From contig JAYODI010000012.1 in assembly GCA_038279365.1 (NCBI GenBank), positions 24,189-88,188 on the forward strand: a stretch of DNA of 64,000 nucleotides. The letters are read 5' to 3'. Positions 7,866 through 53,664 of the stretch are shown here, piece by piece; the first letter of the stretch is position 1, and the number at the start of each line of letters is the position of its first letter. Origin of the DNA: Candidatus Latescibacterota bacterium (GTDB taxonomy: Bacteria; Latescibacterota; UBA2968). A model generated the notes under the pieces. The model saw only the letters and a list, made by a program, of their open reading frames with translations, had not been told where the DNA came from and searched no databases. The translations under genes were made by a program, and so were the position numbers.

Positions 7866-8834
7866 TTATACCAAAGCCATCACACCGCGTTTGACCATTG
7901 TTTTGCTCAATGTCACTTTAAAAGCATTATCACGTAGCGGTTCGGCATCCTTTAATGCCCTATTGGCAAATGCCACAACACGCTCTTCGGTAAGCGCCTG
8001 CCCCACCAAAGAAGACGCATCAACTTGCCAAGGCTTGGGTGCCACACCTCCCAAAACCACTTGTGCTTCACGGCAAACCCCACCCTCAACACGCAAGGCC
8101 ACAGCCGCTGCCGACAAGGCAAAATCCATAGACCCTTTTTCCTTAAATTTCAAATAGGTGCTCTTGCTCCCAGACTTGGGTTTGGGCACAAACACTTCGG
8201 TAACCACTTCATTGGGCAACAAGACTGTTTCTTGGTATAAATTTTCCATGGGCAAAACAAAAAACTCAGATGCAGGCACAGTGCGCTCACCTGTTGGCCC
8301 TTGAATTTTAATGGTCGCCTGAAGGGCAATCAACGCCGGTGCCGTATCTGAAGGATGGACAATATGACAAGGCCCCCCTCCCATAATGGCATGGTATTTG
8401 TTTTCACCATCTACAGCAAAACACTTATGACCACCCTTTTTCAAACAGTGGAACTCTTCGCCCCGATAATACCAACAGCGCGGGCGTTGGCACAAATTGC
8501 CACCGATCGTACCCACATTGCGAATTTGCAAAGACGCAACCGAGGCAGCAGCCTCAGACAAAGCCGTATACATTTTAACGACATCGGCATCAGATGCCAC
8601 ATCGCTCAGTGTTGTGGTTGCACCAATGCGCACACCGTCTTTGCCATGCCGAATATAGCGCAAATCTAAAGCCTTGATATTAACCAGGCGATTTGGTGCA
8701 ATTAAATTGTCTTTTAACTCCCCCAACAGATCAATGCCACCGGCCATCACCACCGATTTGCGGTCGCGTTTTTGGCTCAACAACTGAGGCACATCCTTCA
8801 GGTTCGACGGATTGACATATTCAAAAGCATTCAC
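7866..8834 (-). CDS. xanthine dehydrogenase-family FAD subunit (PaoB/YagS-like)
   Basis: AGGIDL and QIRNVGTIGGNLCQRPRCWYYR motifs, with the Cys-rich insert C..C..C..C-HIVHPSD that binds a [4Fe-4S] cluster in PaoB. Confidence 0.93.
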   Translation of the reverse strand: MNAFEYVNPSNLKDVPQLLSQKRDRKSVVMAGGIDLLGELKDNLIAPNRLVNIKALDLRYIRHGKDGVRIGATTTLSDVASDADVVKMYTALSEAAASVASLQIRNVGTIGGNLCQRPRCWYYRGEEFHCLKKGGHKCFAVDGENKYHAIMGGGPCHIVHPSDTAPALIALQATIKIQGPTGERTVPASEFFVLPMENLYQETVLLPNEVVTEVFVPKPKSGSKSTYLKFKEKGSMDFALSAAAVALRVEGGVCREAQVVLGGVAPKPWQVDASSLVGQALTEERVVAFANRALKDAEPLRDNAFKVTLSKTMVKRGVMALV

Positions 8835-10954
8835 GATGCTGCCTCCTTGTTACCTTGAGCCAACGCATTTAATACCTTGTCGGGCGTCATAGGAAAATCG
8901 GTCACCCACACACCAATTGCATTATAAACGGCATTTGCCAAAGCACCTGCCGTGGGAATGGTTGCCGGTTCACCCAAACCAATCACACCCCGTTCGGGCA
9001 TATCCATCAAAATGGGTACAATCTCGGGCATCTCCAAAGCACCTGCTACTTTATAGGCTTCCATGTTGGGGTTCACCATCACGCCCGTTTGCCGATCTAA
9101 AAGCCGATCTTCTAACAAGGCATAACTCAAACCACCGATCACTCCGCCATTGACCTGACTTTCGGCCAAAAGCTTGTTCACCACAAGGCCACAATCATTG
9201 ACAGCCACAATTTTAATGGGCTGAATCCGACCTGTTTCAACATCTACTTCGACCTCAGCAAAATGCACCCCCGCTGCTCCCGAGCTGTGATACCCATCAT
9301 CGCGATTGGCTGTGACCACAATATCACTGGCCAATTGGGCAGTAGCCTCAGACCAACTGATACTTTTGCCATTGCCAATCACCTGAATTTTGCCTTGGCG
9401 CGTTTCAAGCGTGGAAGCATCAACACCCAACAATGGCGCAACAAATGCCAACAATTCACCCTTGGCTTTGCGTGCCGCTGTTTTGGCGGCAGGAACCATA
9501 GATGGGGTCGTACTGCTGCCCCCACTGCCCGTTCCTGGTGGAAAATGGGTATCGCCAATGTGTGGGGTCACCTGATCCATTGTGAGGCCCAATTCTTCGG
9601 CAACCGTCATGGCCAAAATCGTTCGAGAACCTGTACCAATATCTTGTATGGCACACTTGGCATCTACAGTACCGTCAGAGTGAATTTGCACTTCGACATA
9701 ACTGTTTCTATTGCCACCGCCTCCCCACATACCACACCCCATACCCAAGCCACGCTTCACGGGCCCCTTGGCCGAACCTGCTACTTTGTTGCGCCGTTCC
9801 CACCCAATGGCTTTGGCACCGATTTCATATTGTTTGAGGCGAATGTCATTGGCACTGGAACCATTGGCCTTGCGAAAATCCAAAGGATCCATCCCAACCG
9901 ATTCGGCCAAAGCATCCAAAGCACAATCCATCGCAATTTCTGCCTGAGGATGCCCTGGTGCACGCATTGCCCGAGCACCGCCTGCGTTAATATGTACATC
10001 TTTAAGCTCAGACTTGTAGTTGGCAATGTCGAACACATAGGGCAGTGGAATGTTTCCGATGCCCCCCACGCCACCCGTGCCATAGGTTTGTGACTGGAAG
10101 GCCGTAATTTTCCCGTCTTTTTTGGCCCCCATCTTAATCGTCATCACCGCTGAAGGGCGATTGCCAACTGCCAGTTGTTCTTCTTTGCGGTTGAGCATCA
10201 GTTTTACGGGCACTTGTGCCATACGCGCCAAAGCGCTCACCGCCAAGCCTTCGGCGCCCGCACCAAATTTACTCCCAAACCCACCCCCCATATATTGACA
10301 AATCACCTGAACACTTTCTTTTGGCAACTTATAGTGCTCGGCCAATTCATCGCGCACACTCACCACCCCTTGCGTGGAACACCAAACCGTGAGTTTGTCA
10401 CCCTCCCATTGGGCCACCGCGCCATGCGTTTCCAAAGAGTTGTGCACTTGCACAGGCACCCGATATGTCTTTTCAATAATGGCATCTGCTTCGGCAAAAC
10501 CAGTAGCCACATCGCCTTTTTCGCGTTGACCACGCCCTGGCATTTCCACATTACCCCGTGGATGAATTTGCGCGGCACCATCGGCCATAGAGGTCTCTTC
10601 ACGCACACTAAAAGGCAATGTTTCATATGTCACATCAATCAACCTTAATGCTTCTTCAGCCACCTCAGGAGAGATTGCCGCCACAGCGGCCACTTCTTCG
10701 CCTGCATAACGCACCGTCTGTTTTTCAAAATCATAAACGGCTTTTACACCAGGATGTGCCGACGCGCGCGTCAAATCCACTTTTATCACTTTGGCATGTG
10801 GATGTGGAGATCGCAAAATTTTGCCATACAACATATTGGGCAAATTGAGGTCGTATGTATATTTTGCTCGCCCAGTGACCTTATCTTCGCCATCGAGCCG
10901 TATTATGTTGGTGCCCGTCAAATACCGTTCACCCCATGGTTTCATGTCTGCCAT
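8831..10954 (-). CDS. xanthine dehydrogenase-family molybdopterin subunit (PaoC/YagR-like)
   Basis: KVTGRAKY, MGGGFGSK, AMRAPGHPQ, QDIGTGSRT and GLGEP motifs. Confidence 0.95.
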   Translation of the reverse strand: MADMKPWGERYLTGTNIIRLDGEDKVTGRAKYTYDLNLPNMLYGKILRSPHPHAKVIKVDLTRASAHPGVKAVYDFEKQTVRYAGEEVAAVAAISPEVAEEALRLIDVTYETLPFSVREETSMADGAAQIHPRGNVEMPGRGQREKGDVATGFAEADAIIEKTYRVPVQVHNSLETHGAVAQWEGDKLTVWCSTQGVVSVRDELAEHYKLPKESVQVICQYMGGGFGSKFGAGAEGLAVSALARMAQVPVKLMLNRKEEQLAVGNRPSAVMTIKMGAKKDGKITAFQSQTYGTGGVGGIGNIPLPYVFDIANYKSELKDVHINAGGARAMRAPGHPQAEIAMDCALDALAESVGMDPLDFRKANGSSANDIRLKQYEIGAKAIGWERRNKVAGSAKGPVKRGLGMGCGMWGGGGNRNSYVEVQIHSDGTVDAKCAIQDIGTGSRTILAMTVAEELGLTMDQVTPHIGDTHFPPGTGSGGSSTTPSMVPAAKTAARKAKGELLAFVAPLLGVDASTLETRQGKIQVIGNGKSISWSEATAQLASDIVVTANRDDGYHSSGAAGVHFAEVEVDVETGRIQPIKIVAVNDCGLVVNKLLAESQVNGGVIGGLSYALLEDRLLDRQTGVMVNPNMEAYKVAGALEMPEIVPILMDMPERGVIGLGEPATIPTAGALANAVYNAIGVWVTDFPMTPDKVLNALAQGNKEAAS

Positions 10955-10955
10955 A

Positions 10956-11594
10956 TTATGCCCCTCCCCGTTGCAATTTGGCAGCCGTCAAAGCCGCATC
11001 AAAAACACGTGGATAGGTGCCACACCGACAAGTATTGCCAGATACGGCCTTTTTAACATCATCCAGAGTGGGATTGGGGTTGCGATCCAATAATGCACGT
11101 ACAGAAACCACAAACCCTGGCGTGCAAAACCCACACATTTGTGCATCGTGTTGTAAAAATGCCTCTTGTACAGGATCCAACTCACCGTCTTTTGACAACC
11201 CTTCCACCGTGGTAATTTCTTTTCCCACAGCATCAATGGCCAGCATCATACATGAATAAACAGGCTGTTTATCAACCATCACCGTACATCCACCACACGA
11301 ACCCCGCTCACAAATGGGCTTTGGGCCCGTAATGTCTAACTTTTGCCGCATCACATCTAAAAGGGTATGACGCGGTTCAATGGCCGTTTTGTGTTCTGTG
11401 CCATTGATCTTTAAGGTGACTTGTGAGGCTTGGGGGCCAATGGTCTTACCCAAGGCTTTTTTTGCTTCAACTGTTTGGGGGGGCACAACAACCGTTAACA
11501 AACCCGTTGCCGCAGCACCAGCACCCAAACCTTGCAGAAATGTGCGTCGAGACATACCCGACGTGTTTTCTGAATGATTCGGTTCTTGTTTCAC
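10956..11594 (-). CDS. Tat-exported 2x[2Fe-2S] subunit (PaoA/YagT-like)
   Basis: Twin-arginine SRRTFLQG; CERGSCGGC..C and CGFC..CRC clusters; GTG start after AGGAGG. Confidence 0.95.
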   Translation of the reverse strand: MKQEPNHSENTSGMSRRTFLQGLGAGAAATGLLTVVVPPQTVEAKKALGKTIGPQASQVTLKINGTEHKTAIEPRHTLLDVMRQKLDITGPKPICERGSCGGCTVMVDKQPVYSCMMLAIDAVGKEITTVEGLSKDGELDPVQEAFLQHDAQMCGFCTPGFVVSVRALLDRNPNPTLDDVKKAVSGNTCRCGTYPRVFDAALTAAKLQRGGA

Positions 11595-18036: not shown

Positions 18037-18801
18037 TTAAAATCGTGATTTGGCTTTTAATAAACGCAAGGCATTGCCACCTAAAATCGCCTCAGCCACA
18101 TCGTCAGCAACGTCTGTCACCACACGGCCCAAAGCGGCATGAGGAATAAACAATGGGGCGTGAGAACCAAACGCCAACCGTGCCCCCAACCCCTTATCGA
18201 CCAAAACCTTAACCGCATCCAAACCGTCTACCTGTGAAGTATCGGCATACACATTGGGCAATGCCACTATACGCTCTGCCAAAGTGCGCAACTCGGCCGC
18301 CTTTGCCCCACCAATCACCACACACAACTCAGGCAATTGTTCGGCCATATCCACCACCACAGAAGCGGCCAAACTTGGCACAACTGCCAAAGGATGATGA
18401 CGACGCGGATCTTCCAAACAAATCTGCACCATCACAGATAAATGCGCATCGTGTATCGCCTGCAAAAAGTCCTTCTCGCTGGCCAAATCATACCCGCCGT
18501 AATTAGGCAACAACCGAACCATTTGTACACCATCATGTTCACACGCACATTTTAATTCCTGCTGCCAATTTGCCACCGTCGGATCTAATACTGGCACTGG
18601 GGATACATCGTCAAATGCATCACTTGCCTCAAACAAAACACGATTATATACATGAGGGTTACGACACCACACAGAACCCAAATGTGACGCAAAAATACGC
18701 GTTACACCAACTTCCCGCAACGAAGGCCACACATCTTCAGGATCGCCCATCACAGGATGAGAGGGCCACGTGCCAATAAAATTGTTCAAGTCAATAATCA
18801 T
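18037..18801 (-). CDS. amidohydrolase_2-family protein (metal ligands partly degenerate)
   Basis: MIIDLNNFIGTWP, NVYADTS, LAFGSHAPL and ILGGNA motifs. Start placed at ATG 18801. Confidence 0.8.
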   Translation of the reverse strand: MIIDLNNFIGTWPSHPVMGDPEDVWPSLREVGVTRIFASHLGSVWCRNPHVYNRVLFEASDAFDDVSPVPVLDPTVANWQQELKCACEHDGVQMVRLLPNYGGYDLASEKDFLQAIHDAHLSVMVQICLEDPRRHHPLAVVPSLAASVVVDMAEQLPELCVVIGGAKAAELRTLAERIVALPNVYADTSQVDGLDAVKVLVDKGLGARLAFGSHAPLFIPHAALGRVVTDVADDVAEAILGGNALRLLKAKSRF

Positions 18802-18815
18802 ATTCAAATTCCAAA

Positions 18816-19649
18816 TTAAATTTGTGTGATACCTGTCCAAGCGGGCAACAACTTGGCCGTATTGTTCCAAAGAATTTTTCGCTTCACCACATCTGATAAA
18901 TTTGTTCCCAATGTTTTGCCCAACTGCACAGCAAAATGACGGATAGGTGCATCTGAGCCAAACACCACCCGATCTTCACCCAACATATTTACAGCCGCTT
19001 CAACCATGCCACTTTCTGGGTCGCCACCCGATGTATCAACCACCAAGTTCTCGCAATCGGCAACCGCCGCCAAGCCACGCAACCCACACCCATTGAGATG
19101 TGCCATAATAATGCGGGCCTTGGGATGGCGTTTTGCCAAGTCAGCAACATCCCAAGGAAAAGACTCGCCCTCCAAATTACCCGTTGTTTTTTCCCACGCA
19201 TGTTGTAACACGGGCACATCCAATGCCACAGCGCGTTCCATTATTGGGTCTAATCCCAAATCGGTTGCACGCCGTGCCACCCAAAGTTTGATGCCACACA
19301 TTCGTCCCACACCCACCGTCCGATTCATTTCGATCACAGACTCTGCTGGATACATCGGATTGACATAACAAAATGGATAAAAAACATCGGGCGCAATTTT
19401 TTGCATTTGTAATGCATAATCATTTGCCTCACGACATTGGTCCATCGTGGGTTCACGTGGCACAGTTGTATGAAGCGAAAACAGCACCATCTTTTCCACA
19501 CCCGATCGCCTGGCAGATGCGATAAGCCTTTGGGCATCTTCTTCGGCCGAAGTCACAGCATACATACCAAAATTATCTAACGGGTGCACATGCACGTCGA
19601 ATGCCGGAAACGGCGTTTTTAGTTGTGCACGCAACTCAGTAAGTCCCAT
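18816..19649 (-). CDS. amidohydrolase_2-family protein
   Basis: DVHVH, GIKL, PVLQH, IIMAH, VDTSG and VVFGSDAP motifs. Confidence 0.9.
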   Translation of the reverse strand: MGLTELRAQLKTPFPAFDVHVHPLDNFGMYAVTSAEEDAQRLIASARRSGVEKMVLFSLHTTVPREPTMDQCREANDYALQMQKIAPDVFYPFCYVNPMYPAESVIEMNRTVGVGRMCGIKLWVARRATDLGLDPIMERAVALDVPVLQHAWEKTTGNLEGESFPWDVADLAKRHPKARIIMAHLNGCGLRGLAAVADCENLVVDTSGGDPESGMVEAAVNMLGEDRVVFGSDAPIRHFAVQLGKTLGTNLSDVVKRKILWNNTAKLLPAWTGITQI

Positions 19650-19785
19650 ATACCCAACCTTGTATGGAGTTAAAAACAGAGTACACATCATAAGTGTATC
19701 AAATGAAATCTTTGAATAAGCCCACCGAAAAGCAAGCCCTAAAACAAACGCCCCAACACGTCGCAGAGGCGTTTCTTATTTTTGC

Positions 19786-19862: not shown

Positions 19863-21053
19863 ATGCCAACACTTGTCGATCAACTCATATCTGAAATGCA
19901 CAAACGATTTGGCATTGCACCTGCCCATGTCAAAATTGTGCGTTCACCCTATCGCATCTGCCCATTGGGTGCACACATAGATCACCAGTTGGGTGCCGTG
20001 ACAGCCATGGCAATTGATCAGGCCGTTTATTTGGCATTCGCCCCCACAAACAACACCAAAATACAACTGCAAAGCCTCACATTTGATGGCCAAGTTCGCT
20101 TTGACATTCTTGATGTGCCCCAAAAGCAAAGCAATGACTGGGGTAATTATGCACGTGGGGCCGTTTATGCACTCCAAAACCAAGGACACACACTCACCAA
20201 AGGCTTGGTGGGGCTCACGAGTGGCAGAATGGACGAAGGTGGTCTCAGTTCATCAGCGGCCATTGGTGTGGCCTATTTGCTTGCGCTTGAATACGTCAAC
20301 CAAATTGAGATCACGGCAGAAGAAAACATTCGCCTCGACCAAGCCATCGAAAATGGGTATCTCGGCCTTAAAAATGGGATTCTCGATCAATCGGCCATTT
20401 TGCTTTCACGCAAAGACCATCTCACGCTGATTGATTGTGCATCTGTCGATTACGAATGCATACCCAAATCTCAAGAGATGCCCCCCTTTGATATCTTAAT
20501 TGCACAATCGGGGCTCAAAGAAGCACTCGTCAGCACCGGATATAACACCCGCGTAGATGAATGTGCACAGGCCGCTCATTTGTTATTAAACGCGGTTGGG
20601 CGTTCTCACCAAGCACCATTGTTGGGCAATATTACAGCAGCAGAATACCACACCCATCAACATGTTCTCTCAGGCGATATTGCCAAACGTGCGCGCCATT
20701 TCTTTGGTGAATCAACACGTGTCAAGCAAGGCATAGAAGCATGGCGCACAGGAGACCTCAACACATTTGGCAAACTGGTTGCCGAATCGGGTTACAGCTC
20801 TATTCACAACTACGAATGTGGCAGCACAGCACTCATAGATCTCTACCACATCCTCATGGAAACCGAGGGCGTTTATGGTGCACGATTTAGCGGTGCAGGG
20901 TTTCGAGGGTGTTGTGTGGCGCTTGTAGACCCATCAAAATCAACCGCAGCACGCGAACAGGTTCACAGACAATACCACGAAAAACAGCCTCGCCTTGCCA
21001 AAAATGCCTCTTCCTTCACCTGTCACCCCGCCGATGGAGCACACATCCTGTGA
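19863..21053 (+). CDS. GHMP sugar-1-kinase, galacturonokinase-like
   Basis: SPYRICPLGAHIDHQ, GGLSSSAA, NGILDQ, YNTRVDEC and GARFSGAGFRGC. Carries GAHIDH in place of the galactokinase GEHxDY. Confidence 0.9.
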   Translation: MPTLVDQLISEMHKRFGIAPAHVKIVRSPYRICPLGAHIDHQLGAVTAMAIDQAVYLAFAPTNNTKIQLQSLTFDGQVRFDILDVPQKQSNDWGNYARGAVYALQNQGHTLTKGLVGLTSGRMDEGGLSSSAAIGVAYLLALEYVNQIEITAEENIRLDQAIENGYLGLKNGILDQSAILLSRKDHLTLIDCASVDYECIPKSQEMPPFDILIAQSGLKEALVSTGYNTRVDECAQAAHLLLNAVGRSHQAPLLGNITAAEYHTHQHVLSGDIAKRARHFFGESTRVKQGIEAWRTGDLNTFGKLVAESGYSSIHNYECGSTALIDLYHILMETEGVYGARFSGAGFRGCCVALVDPSKSTAAREQVHRQYHEKQPRLAKNASSFTCHPADGAHIL

Positions 21054-21820
21054 AAGCCATTATACTTGCAGCCGGTTATGCCACACGCCTTTACCCCCTC
21101 ACCAAAGACTTTCCCAAACCCCTACTTGAAGTGGGTGGGCAAACCATTTTAGATCACCTGATTGACCAACTTAAAACCATTCCAGAACTCGACCATGCCT
21201 ACTTGGTCACCAATGCACGGTTTCATAATCATTTTACAAATTGGGCGCAAAACCGTGCCGCCAAAGCCCAAGAATCGGAACAAGCACATGTGGGGCTGCG
21301 CACAGACATTCTTGACGATGGCACATCTTCTAATGAGGATCGACTCGGTGCCGTGGGCGATCTTCAATTTGTCATAAATGCACGCGACATTCACGATGAT
21401 GTGCTCGTTTTGGCAGCCGACAACATTCTCCAATTTTCACTGCAAAAACTTATCAACACCTTTAAAAACAACCCAGCACCACACATTACCGTAAGATCCA
21501 ATCCCGATGTGGAAGATCGCAAACGCAGGGGCAACGCACGCCTTGACACCACCAACAAAGTCATTGAGTTTATCGAAAAACCCAAAACACCCATTTCAGA
21601 ATGGTCTGTTCCTCCCTTCTATATTTATCCCACAGCCGTATTACCACGCATCACCGAATACCTCGACAATGGGGGCAACCCCGATGCACCGGGGCATCTG
21701 ATTGAATGGCTCCATAAAGAAGAAGCGGTCTATGCTTACGAAATTGAAGGCGAAATTATAGATATTGGCAATCACGAATCTCTTGCTGAAGCACGACGTA
21801 TCTTTGGTGAAAAAACCTGA
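21050..21820 (+). CDS. sugar-1-phosphate nucleotidyltransferase (NTP_transferase family)
   Basis: GTG start overlapping the kinase TGA (GTGA); KAIILAAGYATRLYPLTKDFPKPLL, FIEKP and DIGN motifs. Confidence 0.92.
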   Translation: MKAIILAAGYATRLYPLTKDFPKPLLEVGGQTILDHLIDQLKTIPELDHAYLVTNARFHNHFTNWAQNRAAKAQESEQAHVGLRTDILDDGTSSNEDRLGAVGDLQFVINARDIHDDVLVLAADNILQFSLQKLINTFKNNPAPHITVRSNPDVEDRKRRGNARLDTTNKVIEFIEKPKTPISEWSVPPFYIYPTAVLPRITEYLDNGGNPDAPGHLIEWLHKEEAVYAYEIEGEIIDIGNHESLAEARRIFGEKT

Positions 21821-21869: not shown

Positions 21870-23069
21870 ATGGCAAGTGTTAACATCATTCGTCACAAAC
21901 CCATTCCCATCTTTTGCAGCACCGCCGAAGTCGTCATCACATACGATGACAATCAGATTGTTCGACTCATAGAACCCAGCGGCAATGTGGGCACACAATA
22001 TTCACAAGAACTGGGTTCGCAGTGGTTTGGTACCATTCAAAACCTCAATCCTGGCCTTGAACGAGGTGGTGCAAATTGGGGCGATGTTTATAAAACCGAT
22101 GTGCTCTGGACAACCCCATCACCCGACCGCGATGTTTGTGAAGCCTATCGCAACGACTACAATGCCGTTTATGGCCCCATGATCCAAGCGGTCACGGGTT
22201 GTACGCTCAAATCCAATCGCATGGCGCGCTTCACACATTCAGAAGGCTTTCCCGATCCGAAAGCGCGTTTTGAAGTTCAAATCAAAGCCATCAAAGGCGA
22301 AGGCATCTCCTTTGGAAATGGCAAAATTGAATTGGGTGCTTGGACAGATTTCCAACCCAGTGGCGCTTCCGTACAACACACCGACGACAAAGGCAACTTG
22401 GTCACCACCTTAGGTGACGATGTCAAAAAAGAAATGGAATTTGTACTGGTTGAACAATATGAAAAAAAACTCGCCAAAGAGGGTGTTGACTTCAAAACCC
22501 AAACGGCTTGGTTAGAAGTACTCGTTGCCATTGATGACGATCCATCGACCACCTGGCAACGCATTGAGGCTGTGCGTGAAGTCATTGCCGAATACTTTGG
22601 CGACAACCGCCCTGCTGGCAAAATTTACCCCGTCTCACGCATCCCCAACCTCGATGGCATTGTTGAGCCCCAACCGCGCTGCGTCACGGGCGATGTCAAA
22701 ATTGATCGTTCGGGAGAAATTATCGATGGGTTTAGCACCTGGACAGCCATTCGGCGCAAAGGTGTTTCAGAAGTACTCGTAAGTGGTGTGGGGGGTGACA
22801 ATGCCAACACCATTCTCAACACCATTGACAAACACATCAAAGCAGCCGGTGGACAAGGTTTAAAAGAAAATGGCGTTTTTAACAATGCCTACATCGTTGC
22901 CGGTGCCAACACGGAAGAAAGCCGTGCACGACTCGTTAAATTCAATGAACAATTTTCGGGTTATTATACAGGTGTCGCACCTTCTGGGCGCACAGCACAA
23001 TATTTACCAGGCTTTATGCAAGAACGTTACATCTGTGGCATATCCAACCGCGCCATTTATGCGGGTTAG
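21870..23069 (+). CDS. hypothetical protein with repeated RidA/YjgF-like segments
   Basis: Three imperfect Rid-like units (GANWGDVYKTDV..YNAVYG..FEVQIKAI; EYFGDNRPA..GIVE; FNEQFSGYY..PSGRTA). ATG 21870 follows GAGAGG. Confidence 0.65.
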   Translation: MASVNIIRHKPIPIFCSTAEVVITYDDNQIVRLIEPSGNVGTQYSQELGSQWFGTIQNLNPGLERGGANWGDVYKTDVLWTTPSPDRDVCEAYRNDYNAVYGPMIQAVTGCTLKSNRMARFTHSEGFPDPKARFEVQIKAIKGEGISFGNGKIELGAWTDFQPSGASVQHTDDKGNLVTTLGDDVKKEMEFVLVEQYEKKLAKEGVDFKTQTAWLEVLVAIDDDPSTTWQRIEAVREVIAEYFGDNRPAGKIYPVSRIPNLDGIVEPQPRCVTGDVKIDRSGEIIDGFSTWTAIRRKGVSEVLVSGVGGDNANTILNTIDKHIKAAGGQGLKENGVFNNAYIVAGANTEESRARLVKFNEQFSGYYTGVAPSGRTAQYLPGFMQERYICGISNRAIYAG

Positions 23070-23088
23070 TCAAAAATGCAGATAAAAT

Positions 23089-23119
23089 AAATGGCGCGAG
23101 TTTATAACTCGCGCCATTT
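23089..23119 (+). terminator. terminator-like hairpin
   Basis: Perfect 13-bp stem AAATGGCGCGAGT/ACTCGCGCCATTT followed by GTGTTTCT. Confidence 0.8.
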
Positions 23120-23222
23120 GTGTTTCTATGATCAAATAGATATTTTATCACTTGACATCTGCCCACATATTCCACATTAAACGCAAGCAAATCGTCCATC
23201 GCATAAACACGGATACGAACCG

Positions 23223-50005: not shown

Positions 50006-51751
50006 CTATTTTTTGACCACTGGCCCAGTTGGTGCATCTTTGCTATAAAGCGCACGCCCACGTTCATAAGAAACCTGGATCTTACCATCAACCACGTCCA
50101 GTCGAGGTACATTTTGACCAAACGCATCTCGATCTGGCCCACGCATCACGGCCATTTGAGCATCATTCATGCCATCAACCAAGTTGCCCCATCGGTTTTC
50201 TGGGTGTGTTAACTCCCCACCACTGCGATTGAAATTGCGCGAAGAATATTTGTGCAAAATACCGCGTCGGGGAATATCACTTTTCCATGCCAATGCCCCA
50301 TGTGTGGTGCCACCATCCATAAAAAAGACCACATCTCCAGCTTTCATCTCAACATGTTTTACCAAGCCCATATGATCATCACAAGAACGCACGCCAGGGG
50401 GTTGACGATAATAAGCTTTGTGAGAACCAGGTACACATGCAAATCCGCCATCTCCAGCATTCACATCGCGCAACTGCCACGTTACCGTAATGGCTTCACA
50501 ATAACTGCGCCCATTTTGATACACATAACCCCGCGTGGGGTTCAATGGTTCATTCGAATCGTGAAGCGCATGCCCAGAACCTCCTTTGACCGAACAAAAC
50601 GCAGTGCCCCCACCCGTACGTCCGCCACTTGCCCCCATCCAATTGAGCCGATGTTCAACAACAGGATGTGCCAACATGCGCCGAAACGGATCACAATAAG
50701 GCGCTGGCAGTTGAATCAACCCATTAAGCAAGGGACGCCCAGTACCAGCCAAACTCTTAGACCCACCAGATAACTCTTCACCCACCTCAATTTTATCTTC
50801 AAAACGATCAATGGCGGCATTTGCCTCAGCCAACCAATCTTTATCCATTACACCCCGTAACACCAAATATCCATTCAAATCCCAAAAATAAAATTCTTTT
50901 TCATCAATCACAGAGTTGGGGTCTTTCATCAGTATAGACGGGTGAAACACCTTGCAGGATTCATCTATTTTTACCGTCTTGCCATCCGTTAAAATGGTCG
51001 GCGGTGGCGTGGTATCGCGATACCCCGGTTTATACAACGAAGCTTGTTGTTCTGATGTCATCTCAGATATCCAATCAGGTTTGGGTTGCTTTTCAGAAAC
51101 AGCTCCCACACCTGCCGAACGCATCACACCACGCCCCACATATTCATATGACAGCAAACGCTGTCGCCTTTCACCTTGCCAGGGGCGCATGCCTTGTAAC
51201 ACGCTCAACCCCACAATCAGCAAATCACCTGCCTTTAATTCGGGTTGCCACACAAAATCTTTGTCGTCGTTACCTGTCAAAACATCTTCAGGTGTTTCTA
51301 AATTTGCCTTATGGCTCCGAGGCACCATCACAAACCCACCCTCGCCCGCCTTCACATCTTCCAATGCCCATATAACCCGAACACCTTCACAATATCGCCG
51401 ACCATTTTGGAAATAATAAGCCACGCCTGGTTCACGAGGTTCGTTCCCCCCCACCAAAGGCGCAGCCGTATCACACGTCTCATCACACAAAATCTCAGGT
51501 TCGCGATCCAGTCTAAAACCAGGTCCTACAATTTGGTTCAAATACCACACCAACTGAGGTTGTATCAACAAATCGCGAAAGGGCTCCTTCCCATCCCCTT
51601 CCCACCGCAACATCCCTTCTAATGCCCCAACACCATCAATCACCCGATTCAACCGCTCGACTTCAGGCCGTGTTAATACCCCTTGTATATGTAAATAACC
51701 AGCAATATCAAATGCGTAATTCTCTTCATTGGTCATCGTTTCTCGATCCAT
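50006..51751 (-). CDS. double-domain phytanoyl-CoA dioxygenase (PhyH)-family protein, paralog 1
   Basis: Two units, each with F/WD..GYL..GV, PFR.LL/ML..P, GGF..VP.SHKA and KAGD; the C-terminal unit has HGALAW..RR. Confidence 0.88.
   Translation of the reverse strand: MDRETMTNEENYAFDIAGYLHIQGVLTRPEVERLNRVIDGVGALEGMLRWEGDGKEPFRDLLIQPQLVWYLNQIVGPGFRLDREPEILCDETCDTAAPLVGGNEPREPGVAYYFQNGRRYCEGVRVIWALEDVKAGEGGFVMVPRSHKANLETPEDVLTGNDDKDFVWQPELKAGDLLIVGLSVLQGMRPWQGERRQRLLSYEYVGRGVMRSAGVGAVSEKQPKPDWISEMTSEQQASLYKPGYRDTTPPPTILTDGKTVKIDESCKVFHPSILMKDPNSVIDEKEFYFWDLNGYLVLRGVMDKDWLAEANAAIDRFEDKIEVGEELSGGSKSLAGTGRPLLNGLIQLPAPYCDPFRRMLAHPVVEHRLNWMGASGGRTGGGTAFCSVKGGSGHALHDSNEPLNPTRGYVYQNGRSYCEAITVTWQLRDVNAGDGGFACVPGSHKAYYRQPPGVRSCDDHMGLVKHVEMKAGDVVFFMDGGTTHGALAWKSDIPRRGILHKYSSRNFNRSGGELTHPENRWGNLVDGMNDAQMAVMRGPDRDAFGQNVPRLDVVDGKIQVSYERGRALYSKDAPTGPVVKK
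50957..51586. repeat. 630-bp direct repeat, copy 1
   Basis: Appears identical to 52718-53347 (offset 1761); shadow ORFs 51004-51375 and 52765-53136 translate identically. Confidence 0.9.
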
Positions 51752-51766
51752 CTGCGCCTCCAAAGT

Positions 51767-53512
51767 TTAAGAATTTGCTACTGGCCCTGTCGGTGCATCT
51801 TTGCTATATAAACCTCTCCCGCGCTCATAAGACACATCTATTGCACCATTTTGAACAATTAAACGAGGCACATTGCTGCCAAACACATCTCGATCTGGCC
51901 CGCGCATCACAGCCAGTTGTGCATCATTCATGCCATCAACCAAGTTGCCCCATCGGTTTTCTGGATGTGCCAATTCCCCACCACTTCGGTTAAAGTTTCG
52001 AGACGAGTATTTCACCAAAACGCCACGCCTTGAAAGATCACCTTTCCAAGCAAATGTACCATGCGATGTGGCCCCATCCATGAAAAAGAGCACATCCCCA
52101 GCTTTCATGCCAATGTGTTTCACCAAGCCCATATGATCATCGCAGGTTTGCACACCCATAGGTGTGTTATAATTGGCCTTATGTGAGCCAGGCACACATG
52201 CAAACCCACCATCGGCCTCTGTCACATCGCGCAATTGCCAAGTCACCGTAATGGCTTCACAATAACTGCGCCCATTTTGATACACATATTGACGCCCAGG
52301 ATTTAATGGCTCACCATTGCCATGTTGCGCATGCCCAGAAGTTCCTTTTACTGATGCAAATACAGATGGATTACCCATACGCCCACCACTTGCCCCCATC
52401 CAATTCAAACAATGTTCGATCACTGGGTGTGCGACCATTCTTCGAAACGGATCACAATAAGGCGCAGGCAATTGTAAAACCGCCTTCAACTCTGGTCGCC
52501 CAGTCCCCACCAAACTCTTAGACTTGCCCGAAGTGACTTCTCCCACCACAATCTGATCTTCAAAGTGATCAACCGCCGCATTGGCTTCGGCCAACCAATC
52601 TTTATCCATTACACCCCGCAACAACAAATATCCATTCAAATCCCAAAAATAAAAATCTCTCTCATGAATGGTCGAATTTGGATTTTTGACCAAAATCGAC
52701 GGATGAAACACCTTGCGGGATTCATCTATTTTTACCGTCTTGCCATCCGTTAAAATGGTCGGCGGTGGCGTGGTATCGCGATACCCCGGTTTATACAACG
52801 AAGCTTGTTGTTCTGATGTCATCTCAGATATCCAATCAGGTTTGGGTTGCTTTTCAGAAACAGCTCCCACACCTGCCGAACGCATCACACCACGCCCCAC
52901 ATATTCATATGACAGCAAACGCTGTCGCCTTTCACCTTGCCAGGGGCGCATGCCTTGTAACACGCTCAACCCCACAATCAGCAAATCACCTGCCTTTAAT
53001 TCGGGTTGCCACACAAAATCTTTGTCGTCGTTACCTGTCAAAACATCTTCAGGTGTTTCTAAATTTGCCTTATGGCTCCGAGGCACCATCACAAACCCAC
53101 CCTCGCCCGCCTTCACATCTTCCAATGCCCATATAACCCGAACACCTTCACAATATCGCCGACCATTTTGGAAATAATAAGCCACGCCTGGTTCACGAGG
53201 TTCGTTCCCCCCCACCAAAGGCGCAGCCGTATCACACGTCTCATCACACAAAATCTCAGGTTCGCGATCCAGTCTAAAACCAGGTCCTACAATTTGGTTC
53301 AAATACCACACCAACTGAGGTTGTATCAACAAATCGCGAAAGGGCTCTCTTTGTTCATTCGCCCATCCCAACATACCAACCAACTGGCCGGCTTGATCTA
53401 TCGCAGAATTCAATCGCGCAATCTCTGCCTTACCCAATACCCCAGGCACATGTAAGTACCCAGATATATCAAATGCGTAGTTTTCCTCAAGCGTCATCTC
53501 ATTGCGGTCCAT
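51767..53512 (-). CDS. double-domain PhyH-family protein, paralog 2
   Basis: Same architecture and length (581 aa) as paralog 1. Confidence 0.88.
   Translation of the reverse strand: MDRNEMTLEENYAFDISGYLHVPGVLGKAEIARLNSAIDQAGQLVGMLGWANEQREPFRDLLIQPQLVWYLNQIVGPGFRLDREPEILCDETCDTAAPLVGGNEPREPGVAYYFQNGRRYCEGVRVIWALEDVKAGEGGFVMVPRSHKANLETPEDVLTGNDDKDFVWQPELKAGDLLIVGLSVLQGMRPWQGERRQRLLSYEYVGRGVMRSAGVGAVSEKQPKPDWISEMTSEQQASLYKPGYRDTTPPPTILTDGKTVKIDESRKVFHPSILVKNPNSTIHERDFYFWDLNGYLLLRGVMDKDWLAEANAAVDHFEDQIVVGEVTSGKSKSLVGTGRPELKAVLQLPAPYCDPFRRMVAHPVIEHCLNWMGASGGRMGNPSVFASVKGTSGHAQHGNGEPLNPGRQYVYQNGRSYCEAITVTWQLRDVTEADGGFACVPGSHKANYNTPMGVQTCDDHMGLVKHIGMKAGDVLFFMDGATSHGTFAWKGDLSRRGVLVKYSSRNFNRSGGELAHPENRWGNLVDGMNDAQLAVMRGPDRDVFGSNVPRLIVQNGAIDVSYERGRGLYSKDAPTGPVANS
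52718..53347. repeat. 630-bp direct repeat, copy 2
   Basis: See copy 1. Confidence 0.9.
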
Positions 53513-53664
53513 CACCAACCTCCTGAAACGTGTAATTACAACGCGCTCGAAACCCGTGTACCCAATGATAAAAATTCACATCCACACCAGAGCTTATTTT
53601 AGACCTCCATGAAAACCCGTTTTTTGTGTAAACACAAGCACAAATGACACGCCCCCACTACCGC

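Follow-up and report, generated by a model that had tools for sequence, protein, structure and literature searches.

Plants salvage free galacturonic acid in two steps, with galacturonokinase (GalAK; Arabidopsis At3g10700, EC 2.7.1.44) followed by the UDP-sugar pyrophosphorylase called 'Sloppy' or USP. Bacterial sugar salvage pairs include Bacteroides FKP (L-fucokinase/GDP-fucose pyrophosphorylase) and AmgK-MurU. In the bacteria characterised so far, UDP-galacturonate comes from UDP-glucuronate, and galacturonate is degraded by isomerase or oxidative routes. The plant pathway is outlined in parts of PMC8636097 and PMC3355719, and a part of PMC3938481 describes zebrafish DrGKUP, in which a glucuronokinase is joined to a uridylyl pyrophosphorylase domain of bacterial type for UDP-uronate salvage. 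We analyzed a 64,000-nucleotide (nt) stretch of contig JAYODI010000012.1 (assembly GCA_038279365.1, positions 24,189 to 88,188), hereafter the window; the source is a Candidatus Latescibacterota genome (6.03 Mb, 98.5% complete, 7.4% contamination). The window carries a gene for a sugar-1-kinase of the plant GalAK type that overlaps the gene for a sugar-1-phosphate nucleotidyltransferase (NT). On balance, we think that the two genes probably serve a bacterial galacturonate salvage in which the NT would activate the product of the kinase, probably with UTP.

The kinase gene (19863..21053, plus strand) starts with ATG and encodes a 396-amino-acid (aa) GHMP kinase, assigned from its open reading frame (ORF), Pfam matches, motifs, and trees. 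Its TGA stop (21051-21053) lies in the junction cctGTGAaagcc (21046-21056) and overlaps the GTG at 21050-21052 that starts the 256-aa NT (21050..21820, plus strand; assigned from its sequence and PF00483), giving a 4-nt overlap, GTGA, which implies translational coupling. This GTG opens MKAIILAAGYATRLYP and is preceded by a GGAG 11 to 14 nt 5' of it. A mechanical ORF list starts the NT at an earlier in-frame GTG (20909), and since homologues of 244 to 259 aa span the 256-aa form at 98 to 100%, we take 21050 as the real start.

Three Pfam families matched the kinase above their cut-offs (PF10509, 42.5 bits; PF00288, 40.2 bits; PF08544, 36.4 bits), identifying a GHMP fold with a galactokinase-type N-terminal sugar-binding signature. 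The five NCBIfam galactokinase models all scored below their cut-offs (238.4 against 385, 215 against 226.65, 195.5 against 499, 186.7 against 443, and 154.9 against 509). Searched against 1.84 billion protein representatives, the kinase matched a Camellia sinensis galacturonokinase (UniRef100_V9QNR1) with 51% identity (368.9 bits, E 3.1e-105), a match far beyond chance. The same library held streptophyte-algal matches in Spirogloea muscicola and Mesotaenium endlicherianum, both of which we take to be zygnematophytes. The closest solved structure was the Lactococcus galactokinase 1PIE (147.3 bits). A separate, canonical galactokinase (GalK) with all the usual motifs is encoded on another contig of the same genome (C20) and is about 30% identical to the window kinase.

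Two sequence blocks, PYRICPLGAHIDHQ and GVYGARFSGAGFRGCC, are identical in the window kinase and the Camellia protein, and the other two blocks differ by one residue each. The GAHIDHQ and GFRGC blocks are the same in the window kinase, the Camellia protein, and the Spirogloea protein. Canonical GalKs, the C20 paralogue included, have PGRVNLIGEHTDYN, SLRDDYEVS, and GAGFGGC at the corresponding blocks. When the kinase was aligned to 1PIE, Glu42 of the GalK GEHTDY motif fell on Ala37 (GAHIDH), while Arg36, Asp45, Asp183, and Tyr233 were retained as R31, D40, D175, and Y227. All 26 aligned family members have Ala37 and Arg348, the latter being the R of GFRGC. We assume that the aligned GalK residues hold the sugar, with the Glu facing C6, and that Asp45 and Tyr233 read the galacto configuration; a literature search on Glu43, Asp46, and Tyr236 returned nothing. 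The kinase shares with the GalK of the Leloir pathway (EC 2.7.1.6; TIGR00131) the GHMP fold, three motifs, and the residues aligned to catalytic Asp183 and Arg36, but it differs in its identity of only about 30%, its sub-cut-off scores, the Glu42-to-Ala and GFGGC-to-GFRGC changes, its separate clade, and the presence of a true GalK elsewhere in the genome.

That separate clade was recovered in two trees. In a quick tree (LG+G4, 94 full-length rows, 15 fragmentary or gapped rows having been dropped beforehand), a 'GAHxDHQ' family of 84 rows split from canonical GalKs with support of 100, and the window kinase fell within a 23-row clade with plant and algal proteins (Shimodaira-Hasegawa-like approximate likelihood ratio test, 97). 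A careful tree of 53 rows, which included named bacterial loci, gave the same split at 100/100 and placed a plant/algal trio (100/99) within an unresolved 40-row group with Planctomycetota, Verrucomicrobiota, Latescibacterota, and Sumerlaeota. An earlier note on this DNA had called the kinase a plant-type galacturonokinase rather than an ordinary GalK, from block matches and a Glu-to-Ala substitution, and had proposed a phylogeny as a check. Its coordinates, motifs (blocks at residues 29, 162, 312, and 336), and stop/GTG overlap are correct by the ORF list and the sequence, the block match and the substitution were recovered as described above, and the kinase grouped with the plant GalAK-named protein and apart from GalK. 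Together with the 51% identity, the sub-cut-off GalK scores, and the separate GalK in the genome, these results uphold the assignment, and we regard the kinase as very likely a bacterial member of the plant galacturonokinase clade.

In the free tree, the plant enzyme was placed among bacterial sequences. An approximately unbiased test did not reject a tree with the 46 bacterial rows as one clade and the plants outside (p 0.173), so nesting of plant GalAK within bacteria is not established. In the part that covers this activity, a 2012 review (PMC3355719) reports that galacturonic acid kinase was undetected in Physcomitrella and green algae. These reported gaps and the place of the plant enzyme among bacterial sequences raise the question of a transfer, in either direction, involving bacteria and the ancestors of land plants.

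The kinase family is not rare. A two-motif scan over one genome per species (185,579 species) found 572 matching stretches, 522 of which encode a relative of the kinase. A related-locus search that used the single kinase sequence gave no relatives, and an alignment was required. In a word-indexed search, which reached saturation, 7959 of 8000 scored candidates were significant; the best 120 were 57 to 91% identical to the kinase and came from Latescibacterota, Planctomycetota, Verrucomicrobiota, and Sumerlaeota. Among these best 120, the Joint Genome Institute (JGI) labels many bacterial homologues 'galacturonokinase', and NCBI does so for one protein. The earlier note knew of no biochemically described bacterial example, and a full-text literature search for a bacterial galacturonokinase returned only plant, chemo-enzymatic, or unrelated papers. 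In annotation, the name is already in use.

The NT matches PF00483 over its full length (97.2 bits; residues 2-249 on profile positions 1-239 of 245), and its N terminus, LAAGYATRLYPLTKDFPKPLL, contains the glycine-rich motif and the Lys. It had no match to PF01704 (UDPGP family) at E <= 0.001. Every NCBIfam equivalog cut-off lay well above its score (AglF, the best, 78.3 against 400; rmlA_long, 69.1 against 320; galU, 42.4 against 326.8; MurU, 46.6 against 250), and none of the named transferases (AglF, RmlA, GalU, MurU, GlgC, and mannose-1-phosphate guanylyltransferase) was matched at cut-off. The closest solved relative was a short RmlA-type enzyme (57.2 bits), and the base-recognition loop DDGTSSNEDRLGAVGD aligned poorly with RmlA-type and GMPPB-type loops. 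Database names for the NT are 'nucleotidyltransferase family protein' and, at JGI, glucose-1-phosphate thymidylyltransferase. Two GalU-like genes elsewhere in the genome ruled out a housekeeping UDP-glucose pyrophosphorylase as its identity.

Relatives of the NT that carry additional domains bear on its product. We counted partners among the 120 best longer relatives (37 to 46% identity): about 50 are fused to GHMP kinases of non-GalK type, about 40 to short-chain dehydrogenase/reductase (SDR) epimerases or dehydratases, two of which JGI calls UDP-glucuronate 4-epimerase, 3 to UDP-glucose/GDP-mannose dehydrogenase domains, and 3 to aldose 1-epimerase. The SDR part of one such fusion (P0418) scored 353.7 bits against 5U4Q, deposited as a dTDP-glucose 4,6-dehydratase, 164.9 bits against 6ZL6/6ZLD, listed as an epimerase domain protein and presumably the Bacillus cereus UDP-glucuronate 4-epimerase, and 111.3 bits against MoeE5. 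One paper, in the part that deals with MoeE5, regards it as an epimerase and describes UDP-glucuronate bound to it. In a quick tree of NT domains, those fused to epimerases, dehydrogenases, and mutarotases nested inside the kinase-linked NT clade, with the GHMP-fused domains as its sister. The fusion partners and this tree favor UDP-hexose and UDP-hexuronate products and point to a rather broad enzyme.

Some proteins of about 570 aa (P0183, P0412-P0417, P0419, and P0422), which form several distinct clusters, consist of the first ~314 residues of a GalAK-type kinase followed by an entire NT with its Met retained. The architecture may be genuine, or these may be cases of a truncated kinase with read-through into the NT gene. 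We rejected them as Rosetta-stone evidence: the kinase part ends near residue 314, without the C-terminal domain that has motif III, so they were counted only as further adjacency cases.

The kinase and the NT occur together well beyond this genome. Within the window's family, the NT lies directly 3' of the kinase in 20 of 20 loci, its own included, mostly abutting or overlapping it. In a wider survey of 80 kinase loci from named genomes, the NT followed within 0 to 224 nt in 37 (24 Latescibacterota, 9 Verrucomicrobiota, 2 Pseudomonadota, 1 'Gemmatimonadetes', and 1 unclassified). Four Chloroflexota loci (L072-L074 and L077) have a non-orthologous NT of 317 aa (PF00483 plus hexapeptide repeats) 25 to 180 nt after the kinase. 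We count this separate NT, the recurrent pairing, and the fusions of NT relatives to kinases in favor of kinase-NT coupling. Other neighbors of the kinase in the survey include a GH28 polygalacturonase-family gene two genes downstream (L043), a UxaE-family match (L096), and uptake-type genes, namely TRAP DctP (L060 and L085) and sodium:solute symporters (L058, L062, L078, and L080). In two of the Chloroflexota loci, genes for the tagaturonate epimerase UxaE and an SDR lie upstream of the kinase, and a xylose-isomerase-like TIM barrel follows the transferase in this group.

From the kinship of the kinase and the pairing we infer the following substrate, nucleotide, and product fate. As an orthologue of plant galacturonokinase, the kinase would phosphorylate free D-galacturonic acid at C1 with ATP; galacturonate is a likely substrate. 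The coupled NT would then turn galacturonate-1-phosphate and a nucleoside triphosphate, most likely UTP, into NDP-galacturonate, which could supply glycan synthesis in the cell or be interconverted with UDP-glucuronate through a 4-epimerase whose gene lies at another place in the genome. The scheme would be the two-step plant salvage route, except that a short transferase of RmlA/GalU fold would do the work of the plant UDP-sugar pyrophosphorylase.

Such a route is a variant of the plant pathway that automatic annotation had foreshadowed. Both consist of an anomeric GHMP kinase and then a pyrophosphorylase, and the two kinases lie in one clade, are 51% identical, and have their motifs in common. 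They differ in the second enzyme, a 256-aa PF00483 protein in the window and a UDPGP-family protein of about 600 aa in plants, and in gene order, the window genes being overlapping and co-oriented and the plant genes unlinked. FKP and AmgK-MurU likewise consist of a kinase that makes a sugar-1-phosphate and a PF00483-type transferase that activates it, but they act on other sugars with kinases of other families, and the NT is far from the MurU model. The published description of DrGKUP shows a similar joining of a uronic-acid GHMP kinase to a short bacterial-type NT, and relatives of the window NT are also fused to non-GalK-type GHMP kinases; DrGKUP differs in that its kinase belongs to another GHMP subfamily, glucuronokinase, and in being one fusion rather than two genes.

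De novo synthesis by UDP-glucose 6-dehydrogenase (UGDH) and UDP-glucuronate 4-epimerase leads to the same end product, and the genome has genes for a UGDH-family protein (C172) and for an SDR (C26) that is 52% identical to the epimerase part of P0418, which makes a de novo route to UDP-glucuronate and UDP-galacturonate plausible. That route differs in beginning at UDP-glucose, and the window pair would be an extra one that salvages free galacturonate. If our reading is true, the conversion of free galacturonate to an activated sugar by way of a kinase is a new piece of bacterial nucleotide-sugar metabolism. There is also a practical side: according to a part of PMC7984243, a paper on UDP-glucuronate 4-epimerase, galacturonate-1-phosphate is no longer sold, and the instability and low activity of the plant kinase ruled out its preparative use. 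For one-pot UDP-galacturonate synthesis, bacterial orthologues used with a matching transferase are obvious candidates.

Several observations weigh against galacturonate salvage by this pair, and some of them concern the sugar. The plant comparator V9QNR1 owes its database name to homology and not to an assay. No GH28, GH88, UxaC, or UxaE was found in the 98.5%-complete genome, which has one weak PL1 match, so no obvious source of free galacturonate is encoded. These absences would also fit the same two-step activation of another sugar, such as glucuronate or another uronic or galacto-configured sugar of marine or estuarine polysaccharides. In line with such a substrate, a glucuronoyl-esterase-like gene lies 6 kb downstream of the pair, DNA of the window (at least half of the sampled words) was present in 10 runs labeled estuary, marine, marsh, or outdoor metagenome, and the wider 'GAHxDHQ' family is diverse (30 to 55% identity) and varies at its GFRGC/GFGGC/GFNG block, which suggests several specificities. 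We nevertheless consider a different sugar unlikely: the kinase belongs to the subclade that contains the plant proteins and has each of the four blocks in common with them, Ala37 and Arg348 included, the residues aligned with the presumed galacto readers Asp45 and Tyr233 are retained, and the UxaE and GH28 neighbors in other phyla point to galacturonate.

The remaining points against galacturonate salvage concern the NT and its link to the kinase. The NT is remote from every characterised transferase, with at most 57.2 bits to solved structures and scores far below the NCBIfam cut-offs. This NT does not follow the kinase in 43 of the 80 loci, 7 of which have less than 1 kb of downstream DNA and 4 of which have another NT. 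Most Planctomycetota have the kinase without the NT, and in four of five tested genomes with a kinase lacking an adjacent NT (three Planctomycetota and one Sumerlaeia), no NT orthologue was found genome-wide (best E 1e-7). The reverse holds in the sister family of the same order, where none of 16 genomes has a GalAK-type kinase, barring two marginal matches at E ~1e-3, and 15 of the 16 have an NT orthologue (50 to 61% identity). In six of seven sister-family loci (L107-L113), this NT and a pair of Amidohydro_2 genes (PF04909) are transcribed divergently; the pair corresponds to the one beside the kinase in the window (18816-19691 and 18037-18870, minus strand, transcribed away from the kinase), with 54 to 71% identity to the window's genes. 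An inositol-monophosphatase-family gene lies downstream in five of these loci, and in one the NT is followed directly by orf399 (72%; described below).

The Amidohydro_2 genes are thus conserved divergent neighbors of the NT across the order, and they also occur in several pair loci. Since the NT keeps this neighborhood in a family that lacks the kinase, it has a role or substrate independent of this kinase, and since the kinase occurs without the NT in Planctomycetota, the pair is not an obligate unit. Conservation of the pair, which the earlier note had made a test of its proposal, therefore proved partial: the pair recurs in Latescibacterota, Verrucomicrobiota, and two Pseudomonadota loci, but in only 37 of 80 loci overall, and its NT probably has a broad range and does not serve this kinase alone. 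The arrangement of the NT beside the amidohydrolase genes is the older one, and the kinase joined it, ahead of the NT, in the window's family. In the salvage route that we propose, this older NT would probably accept several sugar-1-phosphates. In one genus of the sister family (g7), Amidohydro_2 is tripled and a 484- to 535-aa ORF with a weak Cu2_monoox_C match takes the place of orf399.

In nine loci, eight labeled Planctomycetota and one Gemmatimonadaceae, the kinase adjoins a conserved ORF of ~370 aa that matched no Pfam family (L043:6199-7293, L046:6194-7363, L049:6287-7417, L051:6251-7363, L064:1540-2646, L094:6213-7418, and L100:6256-7377; L097:6388-7527 and L053:4751-5866, both on the minus strand). 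These ORFs are 47 to 80% identical to one another and have a GxxGxxG start and an EKP motif, a combination that we take to be typical of Gfo/Idh/MocA oxidoreductases, and they may represent a different fate for the kinase product. We found UxaC in 0 of 41 genomes of the order, with or without the kinase, so another entry route for uronate would be needed.

These data could also be read as adjacency without a shared pathway. The NT would serve an order-wide cluster of two amidohydrolases, orf399 or another ORF, and the inositol-monophosphatase-family gene, acting on a different sugar phosphate, and the kinase product would go elsewhere, for example into a redox or catabolic route as in Planctomycetota. 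The NT that stays beside the amidohydrolase genes without the kinase, the kinase that adjoins the ~370-aa ORF or occurs in genomes without the NT, and the lack of UxaC in the order are all consistent with this arrangement. The translational coupling implied by the 4-nt overlap argues against it, as do the recurrence of the kinase-then-NT order in three phyla, the non-orthologous NT in the same place in Chloroflexota, and the fusion of NT relatives to GHMP sugar kinases. We also know of no catabolic route that begins from a uronate-1-phosphate, and we judge mere adjacency to be distinctly improbable. A plain Leloir-pathway assignment, galactokinase plus a UDP-glucose pyrophosphorylase of GalU type, hardly deserves consideration, because, although the Pfam galactokinase signature and the NCBIfam galactokinase models are the top named matches, the five models all fall below cut-off, the GEHTDY Glu is Ala, the kinase sits in a separate clade with support of 100, and a canonical GalK on another contig and two GalU-like genes are present, so the sequence evidence contradicts it.

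The gene orf399 (21870..23069, plus strand, 399 aa) begins 49 nt past the NT stop, with a purine-rich AGAGAGG ahead of its ATG, and is probably the third gene of a kinase-NT-orf399 transcription unit. A pattern scan found no terminator-like sites between the three genes and matched a two-way terminator-like hairpin with a 16-pair stem (23087..23121) that would close the unit. Promoter-like sites were no commoner than in shuffled sequence (5 versus 5.4 +/- 2.2), and we name no promoter. The orf399 product had no Pfam or NCBIfam match, and its best sequence match among solved structures had an E of 0.08. The ESM Atlas clusters that hold it are known only from Latescibacterota, and 12 sequences were 66 to 91% identical. 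An AlphaFold model built from 12 sequences was of low confidence (mean predicted local distance difference test score 55.8, predicted template modeling [TM] score 0.64), and its best Foldseek matches were chorismatases (E 7e-5, TM 0.41 to 0.47), single RidA/YjgF domains, and the 'Toblerone' folds of cyanuric acid hydrolases. We treat this modeled resemblance as a lead, not an assignment. The protein showed no similarity to the ~370-aa Planctomycetota ORF.

orf399 lies within 0.05 to 3.5 kb of the pair in 26 of 26 Latescibacterota-type pair loci and in 0 of 11 Verrucomicrobiota and Pseudomonadota pair loci; the Latescibacterota-type loci are kin, so this count is not independent evidence. In three Latescibacterota loci (L026, L037, and L039), one to three tandem genes of the Uma2 family (putative restriction endonucleases) stand between the NT and orf399.

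Exact pieces of orf399 turned up in the assembled contigs of four metatranscriptome runs, which may include DNA carry-over. One run (X15) had short pieces on the kinase, the NT, and orf399, and the other three had pieces on orf399 only. The kinase piece in X15 differs at 10 of 241 bases and so comes from a relative. No contig in these four runs spans two of the three genes.

On the other strand, beside the Amidohydro_2 genes, Pfam matches identify a Gfo/Idh/MocA oxidoreductase, an MBL-fold protein, and a UxuA-like dehydratase, together with a 641-aa protein without a family. The earlier note had described the pair as divergent from a sugar-acid cluster. The divergent genes do exist, but the sugar-acid role comes from Pfam families alone, by which the set could be one for sugar-acid oxidation and dehydration. 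A bolder combination of these elements is conceivable, in which the kinase-NT-orf399 operon and the divergent amidohydrolase and oxidoreductase genes would be an undescribed, nucleotide-activated use of environmental galacturonate in an order where no uronate isomerase was detected. The activated uronate would be the substrate of the Latescibacterota-only orf399 with its chorismatase- or 'Toblerone'-like triple RidA fold, and land plants and their closest algae would have received galacturonokinase from such bacteria. We consider this combination quite improbable as a whole and offer it as speculation.

Several minor observations were made along the way. A second kinase/transferase neighborhood of the genome (G000:C34:25034-26685) pairs a GalU-like gene (223 bits to TIGR01099) with a 547-aa open frame that is weakly similar to the N-terminal half of the kinase. 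Strand asymmetry in base composition is extremely strong: all 2-kb bins of the window have a GC skew between -0.11 and -0.29, regardless of gene strand. Over the 96 contigs of the genome longer than 20 kb, the median absolute GC skew is 0.20, with 52 contigs positive, 44 negative, and one below 0.05. The sign flips near 100 kb on contig C46, a candidate replication origin or terminus. Elsewhere in the window are two tandem proteins of about 585 aa with PhyH dioxygenase domains (50009-53518) and a three-gene set for a xanthine-dehydrogenase-type molybdoenzyme (7869-11594; Fer2_2, MoCoBD, and FAD_binding_5).

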